The notes under the pieces: generated by a model
Told to the model about the DNA's origin: nothing
The model's database searches: none
Seen by the model: the letters and a program-made list of their open reading frames with translations, nothing else
From: an uncultured Bacteroidota bacterium
GTDB lineage: Bacteria; Bacteroidota; Bacteroidia; Chitinophagales; LD1
Assembly (NCBI GenBank): GCA_903919075.1
Contig: CAIXGR010000094.1
Location: forward strand, 32,213-96,212
Direction of reading: 5' to 3'
Length of the DNA stretch: 64,000 bases
Shown: positions 681 through 5,856 of the stretch, in pieces
How the letters are laid out: each line of letters begins with the position of its first letter
How positions within the stretch are numbered: position 1 is the stretch's first letter
Made by a program: the position numbers and the translations under genes

Positions 681-730
681 CCACCTCCTGCTCCCCTGCA
701 AGCTTGCGCACTCCTCGCCGGCGGAGGACA
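681..730. repeat. GC-rich hairpin repeat, family B, copy 1
   Basis: CCACCTCCTGCTCCCCTGCAAGCTTGCGCACTCCTCGCCGGCGGAGGACA aligns with 45216-45267. Contains palindrome GCAAGCTTGC and hairpin CCTC..GGAGG. Lies directly 3' of sucC (minus strand). Confidence 0.6.
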
Positions 731-737
731 AATACAT

Positions 738-1949
738 TTATGCCAATGCTCTTTTTACTTCTTCGGCTGCATCTTTAAGAAGGATAGCGCCGCGTACTTT
801 TAAGCCGCTTTCGTCGATGATGCGTTTGCCTTCTTCGGCGTTGGTGCCTTGTAGGCGCACAATTATGGGCACCGGTATGTTGCCGATAGATTTGTAAGCA
901 TCAACTATACCCTGCGCTACGCGGTCGCAACGAACTATACCACCAAAAATATTTACGAGTATTGCTTTTACATGCGGGTCTTTCAAAATAATACGGAATG
1001 CTTTTTCAACCCGTTCAGCATTGGCGGTTCCGCCTACATCTAAAAAGTTAGCAGGGTCGCCACCGCTTAGTTTTATAATATCCATAGTAGCCATAGCAAG
1101 GCCTGCACCGTTTACCATGCAGCCTACGTTGCCATCTAGTTTCACATAATTTAAGTCGGAATTGCTAGCTTCTACTTCGGTAGGGTCTTCTTCGTTTAAA
1201 TCGCGCATGGCCGCAATATCTTTGTGGCGGTATAGTGCGTTGTCATCTAAACTCATTTTTCCATCAACTGCTATAATTTTGCCATCTGATGTTTTCAAAC
1301 AAGGGTTAATTTCAACCATGCTTGCATCGGCGCTTAAGTATGTGTTATAAACAGCTTTTACAAATTTCTGCATTTCTTTAAGCGCATTGCCACTTAAACC
1401 CAAGTTGAAAGCTATTTTACGACACTGAAAATCCTGCAAGCCTACTTTAGGGTCAATCCATTCTTTTTGAACTTTCTCAGGAGTTTTTTCTGCTACCTCT
1501 TCAATATCCATTCCACCTTCGGTTGAATAAATAATTACGTTTTCGCCTTTACCACGGTCGAGCAGAATAGAGAAATAAAGTTCTTTAGGTTGTTCGGCAC
1601 CAGGGTAGTAAACATCCTGCGCTACCAATACTTTGTTTACCAAGCGGCCATGGGGGCCAGTTTGCTTAGTTACTAATACCTTTCCTAATATGTTGGTTGA
1701 AATTTGTTTTACCTGATCTAAATTTTTTGCCAGTGCTACGCCACGTTGTTCAGCGCCTACTATTGTGCCTTTGCCACGGCCACCAGCATGTATTTGCGAT
1801 TTTACAATTACCCAATCGCTATTATACAGTTCCTTCAATTTCTTAGCTGCATCTACAGCCTGTTCGGGAGTTTCAGCTACAAATCCTTCCTGAATGGCGG
1901 CGCCATTCTTCTTCATTAAGTCTTTAGCCTGGTATTCGTGTAAGTTCAT
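738..1949 (-). CDS. sucC: succinate--CoA ligase (ADP-forming) beta subunit
   Basis: MNLHEYQAKDLM N-terminus, ATP-grasp region and GGIVRCD/RLQGTNAEEG C-terminal motifs. Start moved to the canonical MNLHEYQ Met at 1949; the ORF track extends to 2012. Confidence 0.95.
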   Translation of the reverse strand: MNLHEYQAKDLMKKNGAAIQEGFVAETPEQAVDAAKKLKELYNSDWVIVKSQIHAGGRGKGTIVGAEQRGVALAKNLDQVKQISTNILGKVLVTKQTGPHGRLVNKVLVAQDVYYPGAEQPKELYFSILLDRGKGENVIIYSTEGGMDIEEVAEKTPEKVQKEWIDPKVGLQDFQCRKIAFNLGLSGNALKEMQKFVKAVYNTYLSADASMVEINPCLKTSDGKIIAVDGKMSLDDNALYRHKDIAAMRDLNEEDPTEVEASNSDLNYVKLDGNVGCMVNGAGLAMATMDIIKLSGGDPANFLDVGGTANAERVEKAFRIILKDPHVKAILVNIFGGIVRCDRVAQGIVDAYKSIGNIPVPIIVRLQGTNAEEGKRIIDESGLKVRGAILLKDAAEEVKRALA

Positions 1950-2069
1950 TCTATATAATTGTTGATGAATAGTTAAGCGGGACGAAAATAACAGTTCGGG
2001 CTGAATAGTCAAATGTGCCTTTGAATATTATCACGTTCCAAGATTCCATGTTTATTTTACATTCGTGCT

Positions 2070-2723
2070 ATGATTTTGGAAGCTACTGATATTAGGAAAA
2101 AATACGGAACACTTGAGGTGTTGAAAGGAGTTTCTCTTTCGGTAAAAAAGGGGGAGATTGTTTCGTTGGTGGGGCCTTCGGGGGCGGGGAAATCAACGTT
2201 GCTTCATATTATTGGTACGCTCGACAAACCTGATGCAGGGAAAGTAAATATTGAATGCAGAGAGATTGTAATGAATAACGATAAATCGTTAGCTGCTTTC
2301 CGGAATAAAAGTATTGGTTTCATTTTTCAGTTTCATCATTTACTACCTGAGTTTACCGCGCTTGAAAATATTTGTATACCGGCGTTTATTGGTGGTGTAT
2401 CGAAAACCGTTGCCGAAAAGAAAGCTGCGGAGTTACTAGAGGTGATGAAGTTAGGACACCGGACCCATCATAAGCCTTCGGAATTATCGGGCGGCGAACA
2501 GCAACGTGTGGCGGTAGCACGTGCGCTTATTAATAGCCCTGCGCTGGTTATGGCCGATGAGCCTTCTGGCAACCTGGATACGAATAATGCACGCGATTTA
2601 CATAAGCTTTTTTTTGAATTGCGCACACAGCTTAATCAAACATTTATTATTGTTACCCATAACGAAGAATTGGCTGGTATGGCCGACCGGACTATACACA
2701 TGAAGGATGGGATGATGGTTTAA
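2070..2723 (+). CDS. ABC transporter ATP-binding protein (LolD/MacB-like)
   Basis: Walker [13 protein letters not shown] signature [15 protein letters not shown], Walker [13 protein letters not shown]. Confidence 0.85.
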
Positions 2724-2780
2724 AGGTGGTAACAGGTGCTAACACTTTTATTTTATTAATCATTGACAATCAACATATTA

Positions 2781-2842
2781 CTATTAAAGCATTGATAACC
2801 AACTTATATTTAAATATAAGTTGGTTATCAATGCTTTAATAG
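2781..2842. repeat. perfect 62-bp palindrome (31-bp arms, no spacer)
   Basis: CTATTAAAGCATTGATAACCAACTTATATTT / AAATATAAGTTGGTTATCAATGCTTTAATAG, read directly from the sequence. Sits between the ABC ATPase gene and the next + strand gene. Confidence 0.9.
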
Positions 2843-2942
2843 TTTGCAATTACCTACCTGTTTTGAATTTCGAAAGCAGCAGATTTGAATAAAAAGGGCT
2901 ACCTTACGCATTCAATAATTTACAATTCTTTAATGAACTATT

Positions 2943-4634
2943 ATGAAAAAAATATATTTATTATCAGGTGTATTTATTTTGCTTTTGCTTAACCAAGGAT
3001 TAAATTTAAAAGCACAAGGTGGTGTTGGGATAAACGGAGTGGGCGCACCACCGGATAACTCAGCGGGATTAGATGTAAACTACACGAACAAAGGCCTGCT
3101 GATGCCAAGGCTTACAACATTACAACGCGATGCAATAGTTAATCCTGCAGAAGGCCTTCAGATTTACAACACAGATTGTAAAGTGTATAATTTTAATGCC
3201 GGCACACCCTCTAATCCAAACTGGGCAACAATTAATTCTTCGAACGCATTAATAGCCGGGGTAAGCATTTACGCTGTACCTGCCGGTGCTATTTGTGCAG
3301 GTACTAATGTAACCTTTACTGCTACCCCCTCCAGCGGTATTGGTTCGTTAAGCTATCAATGGCAAGTGAATGGCGGAAACGTGGGTAATAATAGTGCCTC
3401 GTACAGTACTACCGGTTTGAATAATGGCGATGTAGTAACTTGTGTGCTAACATCTACAGCCCCATGTGTTTCAGGTTCGCCAGCAACGTCAAATGCTATA
3501 GTAATGGAAGTGAACCCCTACTTACCTGCCAGTGTAAATATTGATATAAGCCCTTCCAATTCAGTGTGTGCATTAACCAGTGTTACCTTTACGGCAACAC
3601 CTTCAAATGGTGGCCCCTCTCCTTCTTACCAATGGCAGATAAACGGAACTAATAACGGTGTAATTGGCCCTACTTATACAACCACAGGATTAAATAACAA
3701 TGACCAGGTAACCTGTGTAATTACGTCGAACGCTACTTGTGTAACCGGTTCGCCGGCCACTTCGAATAACATAAACATGACGATTTATTCAATTCCGGCA
3801 TCTACCTTTTATCCTCATTATGTTCCTGTAAATCTGGCAACCAGTTTTGCGCCAACAGTAACGGGTGCAACTTATGCTTGGACATTTACGGGTGGGTCGC
3901 TAGCAAGCAGCACCGATCAAAACCCATCTGTAACCTGGACATCGACAGGAATTGACACCGTGACTTTACAGGTAACTTTGAACGGCTGTTCTACCACAAC
4001 TAAAAGCTTGCTTACTGTGGCTAATCCGCAACCTTCGTGCCTTGCAATACTTAGTGTAGATCCTTCATCGCAAAATGGAATATATACTATTGTGCCTCCA
4101 GGAGGCGGAGGACAAATGTCGGTTTATTGTGACATGGTTACTGATGGCGGGGGCTGGACGCTTGTAGGTAAAAGTGATTACCAAAGCACTGCCAATTCGG
4201 ACCCAAGCACTGTGAACGGATGGCCACTTAATGTTTACGATGTAGGAGATAATGGAACCGGCACTGGAAAATTTGATGATGGCTTGACTGATAATATTGC
4301 TACCAATAAACAGGTATGGCTATCGGCACCGGGTAGCTTGGATTACATTAAGTTTTCGTATTCGGGTACATACAACTATACTTGGGATAACATGGGCGTT
4401 TCGGGACTTACATCGAGCTATTTTGCCAATTGGAGTGGCGTATTGGAACAAGATGGGGGTTTCGGGTGGTTTTTGAGAGGCGACCCTTATGATGGCAGAA
4501 TAGTTGCTATGGATGCGGGTGGCCAATATTGTGGCGGCTCATCTATAAGTGTTGGCCCGGGTACGCAAACAAATATTAATACCTGTGGCGGGCAGGATCA
4601 GGCATGGTATAGATATCTTTGGTTTGTACGATAA
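2943..4634 (+). CDS. secreted multidomain protein with two Ig-like repeat modules and a C-terminal fibrinogen-related-like domain
   Basis: N-terminal signal peptide. Duplicated module C.GTNVTFTATPS...YQWQ.NG...TTGLNN.D.VTCV.TS...C.GSPATSN. C-terminal SCLAIL...NGIYTIVP...VYCDMVTDGGGWTLV motif. Confidence 0.6.
   Translation: MKKIYLLSGVFILLLLNQGLNLKAQGGVGINGVGAPPDNSAGLDVNYTNKGLLMPRLTTLQRDAIVNPAEGLQIYNTDCKVYNFNAGTPSNPNWATINSSNALIAGVSIYAVPAGAICAGTNVTFTATPSSGIGSLSYQWQVNGGNVGNNSASYSTTGLNNGDVVTCVLTSTAPCVSGSPATSNAIVMEVNPYLPASVNIDISPSNSVCALTSVTFTATPSNGGPSPSYQWQINGTNNGVIGPTYTTTGLNNNDQVTCVITSNATCVTGSPATSNNINMTIYSIPASTFYPHYVPVNLATSFAPTVTGATYAWTFTGGSLASSTDQNPSVTWTSTGIDTVTLQVTLNGCSTTTKSLLTVANPQPSCLAILSVDPSSQNGIYTIVPPGGGGQMSVYCDMVTDGGGWTLVGKSDYQSTANSDPSTVNGWPLNVYDVGDNGTGTGKFDDGLTDNIATNKQVWLSAPGSLDYIKFSYSGTYNYTWDNMGVSGLTSSYFANWSGVLEQDGGFGWFLRGDPYDGRIVAMDAGGQYCGGSSISVGPGTQTNINTCGGQDQAWYRYLWFVR
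3294..3785 (+). repeat. two tandem coding repeats (~75-aa Ig-like modules) inside the 2943-4634 CDS
   Basis: CAGTNVTFTATPSSGIGSLSYQWQVNG...SPATSNAIVMEV versus CALTSVTFTATPSNGGPSPSYQWQING...SPATSNNINMTI. Confidence 0.8.
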
Positions 4635-4758: not shown

Positions 4759-5856
4759 ATGGGTTTACAATGTGGTATTGTCGGTCTTCCGAATGTGGGC
4801 AAGTCAACTTTATTTAATGCCTTGTCGTCGGCTAAAGCGCAGGCGGCGAACTTTCCGTTTTGCACTATAGACCCAAACATAGGCGTGGTTACTGTGCCTG
4901 ATAAAAGATTGAATAAGCTTGAAGAGTTAGTAAAACCACAAAGGGTACTACCCACAACAATTGAGTTTGTAGATATTGCAGGGCTGGTAAAAGGAGCCAG
5001 CAAAGGAGAGGGATTGGGTAACCAATTTCTCGGCAACATCCGCACAGTAGATGCAGTGATACATGTATTGCGCTGCTTTGACGACCCCAATATCATTCAC
5101 GTAGATGGTTCGGTGAACCCGGTGCGCGATAAAGAGATTGTAGATACGGAACTACAGTTGAAAGACCTTGAAAGCGTAGACAAGAAGATTGAGCGCTATA
5201 AGAAAATGTCGAAGACCGGAGATAAAGAGATGTTAAAGGGGCTTGAGGTGATGGAGATTTACAAAAAACATCTTGAGAGCGGACAATCAGCTCGTTTTGC
5301 ACCTGTAACACCGGAAGACAAAAGGTTTATTGAAGACATACAGCTACTAACAGCCAAGCCGGTTATATATGCTTGTAATGTTGACGAAAGCAGTGTAGTA
5401 AACGGCAACCAATATGTTGAAGTTGTAAGAAAAGCTGTAGAAGGCGAAAATGCAGAAGTAGTTATTATTTCGGCAGCTATTGAATCGGAAATTGCAGTAT
5501 TGGAAAGTGCTGAAGACCGGGATGCATTTTTATCGGACTTGGGACTTGCAGAATCGGGTTTGAACCGATTGATACAGGCTGCATACCACTTATTAAGCCT
5601 ACAAACATACTTTACGGCAGGCGAGAAAGAAGTGCGTGCCTGGACCATACATATAGGTGACAAAGCACCTAAAGCAGCGGGTGTTATTCACTCAGATTTT
5701 GAAAAAGGATTTATACGTGCCGAGGTAATGGCTTACGCCGATTTTGTAAATTATAAATCTGAAGCGGCTTGCCGTGCGGTTGGTAAATTACGTTCGGAAG
5801 GGAAAGAATATATTGTGCATGATGGAGACATTATGCATTTCCTTTTCAACGTTTAG
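4759..5856 (+). CDS. ychF: redox-regulated ATPase YchF (Obg-family)
   Basis: GIVGLPNVGKSTLFNAL P-loop, DIAGLVKGASKGEGLGN, and the C-terminal TGS-like region HSDFEKGFIRAEV...DGDIMHFLFNV. Confidence 0.95.
   Translation: MGLQCGIVGLPNVGKSTLFNALSSAKAQAANFPFCTIDPNIGVVTVPDKRLNKLEELVKPQRVLPTTIEFVDIAGLVKGASKGEGLGNQFLGNIRTVDAVIHVLRCFDDPNIIHVDGSVNPVRDKEIVDTELQLKDLESVDKKIERYKKMSKTGDKEMLKGLEVMEIYKKHLESGQSARFAPVTPEDKRFIEDIQLLTAKPVIYACNVDESSVVNGNQYVEVVRKAVEGENAEVVIISAAIESEIAVLESAEDRDAFLSDLGLAESGLNRLIQAAYHLLSLQTYFTAGEKEVRAWTIHIGDKAPKAAGVIHSDFEKGFIRAEVMAYADFVNYKSEAACRAVGKLRSEGKEYIVHDGDIMHFLFNV

Follow-up and report, generated by a model that had tools for sequence, protein, structure and literature searches.

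Does a bacterial protein that bears the hallmark of animal fibrinogen-related domains (FReDs) owe it to an animal, and how much of the protein does the resemblance cover? The question is raised by a gene at positions 2943..4634 (+) of a 64,000-nucleotide stretch of DNA from an uncultured Bacteroidota bacterium of the order Chitinophagales (assembly GCA_903919075.1, contig CAIXGR010000094.1, positions 32,213 to 96,212 of the forward strand); the whole of this stretch is called the window here, and positions refer to it unless another contig is named. The gene is an intact open reading frame (ORF) for a secreted protein of 563 amino acids (aa) plus the stop codon. A preliminary description, made from the sequence alone, had pointed to a FReD-like domain at its C-terminus and had considered an animal-like import. 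Our results indicate that the C-terminal head (residues 361-563, 4023..4631, +) is a remodelled FReD-superfamily domain of bacterial type and no recent animal import. The gene is locally rare, yet it is an ordinary member of a catalogued bacterial domain type. As an overall picture we consider it likely that the product is an exported stalk protein tipped by a remodelled bacterial fibrinogen-like, ligand-binding head.

Sequence evidence for a fibrinogen-related head

The hallmark string SCLAILSVDPSSQNGIYTIVPPGGGGQMSVYCDMVTDGGGWTLVGKSD starts at residue 365 (nucleotide 4035) of an ORF that ends at 4634. The earlier placement of the feature at 4030-4634 was therefore right at its end, while its start lay a few bases too early and in another frame, a trivial discrepancy. 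The NCBIfam model NF040941 (GGGWT_bact, 'fibrinogen-like YCDxxxxGGGW domain-containing protein') matched residues 365-408 over all of its 46 positions (1-46) with 63.6 bits (E = 1.2e-17), the curated cut-off being 30 bits, and scored 67.7 bits at the head locus in a six-frame search of the genome. A search with Pfam Fibrinogen_C (PF00147), proposed in the preliminary description, gave 23.2 bits for the whole protein (25.3 for the domain alone; E = 7e-5), barely above the gathering threshold of 22 bits, and aligned residues 376-410 to profile positions 14-48, i.e. 35 of 221. With phmmer the only matches in the PDB were to the fibrinogen superfamily (XEEL, FIBCD1, tachylectin-5A, angiopoietin-2, MFAP4, tenascins and intelectin-1), with E = 1e-5 to 1e-4 for the first four; the top match was XEEL (E = 1.3e-5), at an identity of only about 48% as hand-counted on the phmmer alignment. 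A PHROG family also matched residues 349-429.

All PDB and Pfam alignments of the head end at about residue 410-416, and the B-subdomain motifs of animal FReDs (FQRR.DGS.DF, GFG and EFWLG) are absent from the sequence, in agreement with the divergence after GGGWT that had been remarked upon before. The C-terminal part of the protein begins with a FReD A subdomain, which carries the GGGWT motif and the Cys366-Cys396 pair (residues 365-408, 4035..4166, +), and the rest is remodelled. The region that follows (residues 413-557, 4179..4613, +) is a sequence orphan and the candidate ligand-binding part. It is rich in Gly, Ser, Asp, Thr, Tyr, Asn and Trp with few Lys or Glu, and it contains a second Cys pair, QYC...NTC, 18 residues apart. 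The tail 413-563 found only itself in an index of 5.8 billion clusters; with such searches empty, the middle region is not tied to the B/P lobes of FReDs by sequence. A regular expression for the P subdomain (DxDxD Ca2+ site, NCA....GGWWY..C) matched 7 of 429 family units, the query not among them. The chain closes with the strand YLWFVR (4614..4631, +), which is the conserved h-x-h-R C-terminal strand of the family and the equivalent of MKIRP in canonical FReDs.

The GGGWT family as a unit of about 200 residues

When 1.84 billion cluster representatives were searched with the 203-aa head, 2311 proteins were recovered at E <= 0.001, nearly all of them matching only the first ~50 query residues. 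GGGW is repeated in these proteins every 200-260 aa or so, and the last GGGW lies 144-230 aa from the C-terminus (median 178; 162 aa in the query, at the short end of the range), from which it follows that the family unit is a domain of ~200 aa. More than half of 429 excised units aligned over more than 80% of the ~196 positions of an iterated profile, and the query, which is itself included in the profile, aligned over positions 1-189 of 196. In a hand-picked alignment the two cysteines C7 and C37 (C366 and C396 of the query), GGGW and the terminal R (R204 is nearly invariant) were invariant or near-invariant; the Gly and Tyr of the first hairpin and CDM..GGGWT were also conserved, and the stretch between is hypervariable.

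The h-x-h-[RK] ending, a feature derived from the family in this analysis and not part of the curated NF040941 model, occurred in 89 of 118 terminal units (75%) versus 7% of background ORFs, and the query ends in WFVR. In a few bacterial units the P-subdomain motif of animal FReDs, F[ST]T.D.DND....NCA.....GGFWY..C, survives, and these units finish with ELYLR or EIYVR; the set also includes one canonical eukaryote-type unit, whose last residues are EMKIRP. Since units with the canonical motif share the terminal strand, the bacterial strand can be bridged to the last strand of classical FReDs. It is this family-level bridging to canonical units that supports reading the whole 200 aa as a putative remodelled FReD.

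Prokaryote-type units of the form GGGWTL.. that end in ELYLR/EIYVR and carry DxDND....NCA....GGFWY..C were seen in the metagenomic proteins P0006, P0114 and P0147, and they form a natural link from canonical FReDs to the remodelled units of bacteria. In giant metagenomic proteins (P0019-P0036) GGGWT units stand in tandem, as many as 15 of them, at regular intervals of 200-260 aa. In the literature searched we found no paper on bacterial GGGWT/FReD domains and neither a solved structure nor a known ligand for any bacterial GGGWT domain; one phage paper does no more than list 'fibrinogen-like' proteins among host-recognition genes (PMC3909814).

Predicted structure of the head

Predicted with AlphaFold2 (AF2) from its single sequence, the head reached a predicted local distance difference test score (pLDDT) of 31.7. 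Rerun with an alignment of 109 units from fetched loci, the model had a mean pLDDT of 63.3 and a predicted template modelling score (pTM) of 0.59, with head residues 1-55 at about 89-97 and the last strand (198-203) at about 90. The comparison with ficolin-type folds that had been proposed was carried out with Foldseek, and its outcome was divided. FReD or intelectin entries made up 50 of the 50 listed PDB matches, superposing with a root-mean-square deviation (rmsd) of ~2 Å over only 50-57 columns (FIBCD1, angiopoietin, intelectin and fibrinogen). Similarity of the entire domain stayed low; the top matches, 4wmq and 5zc0 (E = 6e-4 to 9e-4), had TMq values, i.e. template modelling (TM) scores, of 0.31-0.33 and an rmsd of ~10 Å over ~120 columns. 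In the predicted model the A subdomain is structurally confirmed, and the confidence of the last strand, high despite the uncertain middle, suggests that this strand may pack with the conserved N-terminal part. Among the predicted viral structures in BFVD, several top matches were proteins of cyanophages and Pseudomonas phage annotated with fibrinogen C-terminal domains.

A shared scaffold with exchangeable heads

The protein upstream of the head belongs to a paralogous family. Over 20 further ORFs of this genome share residues 1 to ~360 at 40-63% identity, and the paralog alignments end at residues 354-362, exactly where the head starts. Because homology among paralogs stops where the head begins (~355-362), the head is to be regarded as a swapped module. 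The protein is alone in its sequence cluster, without another relative over its full length.

The scaffold is made up of a signal peptide, a module of ~75 aa, two immunoglobulin (Ig)-like repeats and a PKD or PKD-like domain. The Sec-type signal peptide (residues 1-25, 2943..3017, +), present as previously described, was read from the sequence as MKKIYLLSGVFILLLLNQGLNLKAQ followed by GG, with cleavage between LKAQ and GG, and the same leader pattern recurs in the paralogs; the N-terminus contains no lipobox Cys. The N-terminal family module (residues ~26-101, 3018..3245, +; ...PDNSAGLDV..KGLLMPRLTTLQRDAI.NPAEGLQIYNTD...) is the putative handle common to the family, with the consensus PD.SA.LDV....KG.L.PR.T..QR.AI..P..GL.I[FY]NTD. 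It has no model in the copies of Pfam and NCBIfam that were searched, and a weak match to a phage tail-fibre family was obtained (phrog_30742, E = 0.0018). The two tandem Ig-like repeats (residues ~105-190 and ~195-285, 3255..3797, +) are of the CHU_C-associated/SprB-like type and are visible as an internal repeat in the sequence; their Pfam matches, Ig_7 (114-186) and Ig_3 (200-241), were sub-threshold, and giant proteins of genus relatives hold repeats 40-60% identical to them. The PKD domain (residues 292-355, 3816..4007, +) matched Pfam PKD_4 with 30.2 bits (cut-off 27). The head had been described as fused to two Ig-like modules, and both repeats are indeed there, but so are the N-terminal module and the PKD domain, and the whole is common to dozens of paralogs. 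The reported lack of a C-terminal sorting domain (CTD) of the type IX secretion system (T9SS) was confirmed for types A and B in an NCBIfam scan at E <= 10, in which NF040941 was the sole match; the C-terminus, where such a domain would sit, is taken up by the FReD-like terminal strand.

BLAST with the first 100 residues returned 48 ORFs of this genome; searching all six frames of its 3.5 Mb with residues 25-101 gave 49 places. The N-terminal module occurs 2-18 times per genome in the 24 genus relatives sampled, and a few times in most other families of the order. Given 49 copies here versus 2-18 in the relatives, the scaffold family is expanded in this genome. Copies of the module (contig coordinates within the genome, G000) lie at C15:12064-12294, four in a row at C9:45239-51235, and also on C72, C97, C51 and C25, with a further copy upstream of the window at C94:5-169 (-); there are several tandem clusters.

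Most paralogs end in a glycine-rich domain of ~250 aa (...GGGGSYN.GTNQTN.AGVQ.GNGQVIITW), for example a 628-aa ORF at C15:~11985 (+), and this domain had no match in Pfam, NCBIfam or, by phmmer, in the PDB. It brings to mind polyglycine-rich extracellular domains such as that of ALK/LTK, but the empty phmmer search lent this likeness no support. Other paralog heads are a DUF5122/delta-60 beta-propeller and collagen-like repeats with a C-terminal domain, as assigned with Pfam and NCBIfam. Two further paralogs, at C29:~48015 (+) and C38:~27537 (+), end in a Cys-rich head of ~110 aa (CA.A[ST]DNTVWCVASDN...YPVVRCT.YE) without family assignment, and both carry the PKD module of the query. The FReD-like head is thus, on sequence grounds, one of several alternative tips on a shared scaffold.

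Another Bacteroidota genome (G268, locus L095, C1:1731421-1734558) contains lipoprotein-like paralogs, encoded in tandem, that have their N-terminal region in common. The ORFs occupy 709..2136 and 2094..3137 of that locus, one ending in a GGGWT unit and the next in a different C-terminal module (...GNEYSIVQIGDQVWMAENL...). In that unit a Ca-site/disulfide motif close to the canonical one (FSSFDRDNDPYSMNCS...FWFSNCW) is preserved, and its terminal strand is FYYIR. These neighbouring paralogs show the same head-swap logic as the query family.

Distribution of the head and competing explanations of its origin and extent

The GGGWT unit is present once in the 3.53-Mb genome, as judged by six-frame search. 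We found no GGGWT head in 39 other species genomes of the genus, and among 400 other genomes sampled across the phylum two had a match, one of them above the cut-off. A pattern scan of GTDB species genomes yielded at least 596 stretches, at least 510 of them confirmed. The best 80 of these at least 596 came mostly from metagenome-assembled genomes (MAGs) of Myxococcota or 'Deltaproteobacteria', and also included Bacteroidota, Bdellovibrionota, Actinomycetota, Gammaproteobacteria, candidate phyla radiation (CPR)/Patescibacteria, Auribacterota and Woesearchaeota. The view that bacterial examples are rare therefore holds per genome (0 of 39 in the genus, 2 of 400 in the phylum), but not for the family, which is large (2311 cluster representatives, at least 510 confirmed stretches).

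Recent horizontal transfer of an animal FReD of ficolin, angiopoietin or tenascin type, followed by decay, would account for a hallmark motif identical in style to that of animal FReDs and for the failure to find the domain in the other 39 genomes of the genus. Origin was judged by hidden Markov model (HMM) scores and nearest-neighbour identities, with only ~50 residues alignable for an animal-versus-bacterial tree. By these measures the bacterial model NF040941 fits far better than Pfam Fibrinogen_C (63.6 versus 23.2 bits), and the nearest A subdomains among the matches listed are bacterial (delta-proteobacterial/Myxococcota MAGs, 64-69% identity over 43-47 residues), XEEL reaching only about 48%. 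Both the TL that follows GGGW and the h-x-h-R ending are of bacterial type, and the compositional test was negative, the head being near-equal to the rest of the gene in G+C content (GC; 0.458 versus 0.447) and in GC at third codon positions (GC3; 0.374 versus 0.358). A prokaryote or phage is the more likely donor. We therefore find animal transfer, which the preliminary description had entertained as one possibility, very improbable; most likely either another prokaryote or a phage supplied the head, or it is an old domain that was lost elsewhere. An animal-looking motif is here a catalogued prokaryotic domain, so that transfer from a eukaryote to a bacterium need not be invoked, and the practical value of the finding is modest.

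How far the FReD extends is a harder matter, and several results weigh against reading the entire head as one. For this protein, significant HMM and fold similarity is present, yet it is confined to the ~50-residue motif plus the last strand; when the protein is considered on its own, nothing resembling FReDs in sequence or structure was detectable between residue ~416 and that strand. A search of the tail 413-563 against 524 other family tails was empty at E <= 10, the head lacks the Ca2+-site and GGWWY motifs of animal FReDs, the middle of the AF2 model is of low confidence (mostly pLDDT <60, part <50), and the whole-domain TM-scores, on this low-confidence model, are only about 0.3. To these must be added that no known surface-anchoring signal was found, neither lipobox nor T9SS CTD, for which reason surface display is something that we only infer. 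Much of this could also be explained by a composite C-terminus in which only the A subdomain of ~50 residues is fibrinogen-related and is fused to an unrelated, novel domain of ~150 residues, as might be argued from a tail without relatives in 5.8 billion clusters, from Pfam and PDB alignments that stop at ~410-416 and from Foldseek superposing only ~55 columns well. We nevertheless regard such a fusion as unlikely, because the terminal h-x-h-R strand, a family hallmark found in canonical-type units too, is present, the 162 aa from GGGW to the C-terminus fall inside the family range of 144-230 (median 178), and the last strand is modelled at pLDDT ~90 despite the uncertain middle, which suggests packing on the conserved N-terminal part. 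That the motif arose by chance, or is an annotation artefact of noncoding DNA or a misread frame, is hardly conceivable: nothing beyond the shortness of the conserved stretch speaks for it, and it is refuted by the intact frame of 563 codons, by upstream domains conserved in dozens of paralogs and by a motif E of ~1e-17.

Proposed role

According to the reading that we prefer, a remodelled FReD on an exported stalk, the protein leaves the cytoplasm by the Sec route and comprises, after its signal peptide, the N-terminal module, two Ig-like repeats, the PKD domain and the C-terminal head. The head (361-563) represents the prokaryotic GGGWT_bact branch of the fibrinogen-related/intelectin superfamily. 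Four features persist in it: the A subdomain with its disulfide, the central GGGWT strand, a further Cys pair and, at the very end, the h-x-h-R strand. In place of the ~150 residues from which animal FReDs build their ligand-binding B/P lobes, it would carry lineage-specific sequence. Such a head would have been recruited once onto a scaffold of about 49 paralogs, most of which have other heads. The beta-sandwich stalk would present it outside the cell, where it would bind a ligand via the variable middle region, and the shared N-terminal module would serve export, anchoring or assembly.

The head is likely a ligand-binding, probably glycan-binding, tip on the stalk. A carbohydrate/glycan or a cell-surface polymer would be the most plausible ligand, by analogy with FReDs, with intelectins and with phage receptor-binding proteins that carry this domain, and given the middle region's wealth of Gly, Ser, Asp, Thr, Tyr, Asn and Trp, a composition that suits a beta-rich binding domain. 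A bolder proposal, which we advance as speculation and consider quite improbable, is that the 49-copy family constitutes an undescribed surface-display or fibre system of Bacteroidota with an N-terminal handle instead of a T9SS CTD, the middle of the FReD-like head being a newly evolved ligand-binding lobe whose specificity is unlike that of characterised FReDs and intelectins. As for the family context, a stalk scaffold with swappable heads has expanded specifically in this genome. A compact, single-copy head of 200 aa on a simple scaffold would be convenient for expression and glycan-array screening.

Comparison with known systems

The query resembles other NF040941 proteins in covering the full 46 positions of the model with a score double the cut-off and in its ~200-aa unit, Cys pair, GGGWT motif, hypervariable middle and h-x-h-R strand. 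It differs from them in an architecture found only in this genome (N-terminal Bacteroidota module, two Ig-like repeats, PKD domain and one head), in a short unit (162 aa after GGGW) whose middle is a sequence orphan, and in having a single unit where many members carry tandem arrays of 2-15.

With the animal FReDs of PF00147 (ficolins, FIBCD1, angiopoietins, tenascins and tachylectin-5A) it shares the A-subdomain disulfide, the CDM..GGGWT strand, another Cys pair close to the C-terminus, an Arg at the end of the last strand and the overall length. The animal domains have FQRR.DGS.DF/GFG/EFWLG, a DxDxD Ca2+ site and NCA...GGWWY..C, whereas the query is without these, and its second Cys pair sits in surroundings different from the animal NCA....GGWWY..C. 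Only 35 of 221 Pfam positions align, and fold similarity was demonstrated over ~55 residues only.

The intelectins or X-type lectins (human ITLN1, 4WMQ; Xenopus XEEL, 4WMO) provided the best PDB matches in both sequence and Foldseek searches. In intelectins and query alike, similarity to FReDs is limited to a segment at the N-terminal side (GGGWTLV...), and a hydrophobic strand with Arg closes the chain. The query unit is, however, about 80 residues shorter than the intelectin lectin domains, the sequence alignment covers 365-416 only and none of the Ca2+/diol-binding region, and the TM-score is 0.33 on a low-confidence model.

Genomic context

The gene is preceded by a lolD-like gene for an ATP-binding cassette (ABC) ATPase (2070..2723, +) and followed by ychF (4759..5856, +), with sucC (738..2012, -) farther upstream. 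Scans of the locus for promoters and terminators gave counts at or below shuffle expectation, using a sigma-70 consensus that is ill-suited to Bacteroidota. A perfect AT-rich palindrome (ATTAAAGCATTGATAACCAACTTATATTTAAATATAAGTTGGTTATCAATGCTTTAAT...) is located at 2781-2842, inside the 219-bp gap directly upstream of the gene, and could be an operator or the terminator of the upstream ABC gene.

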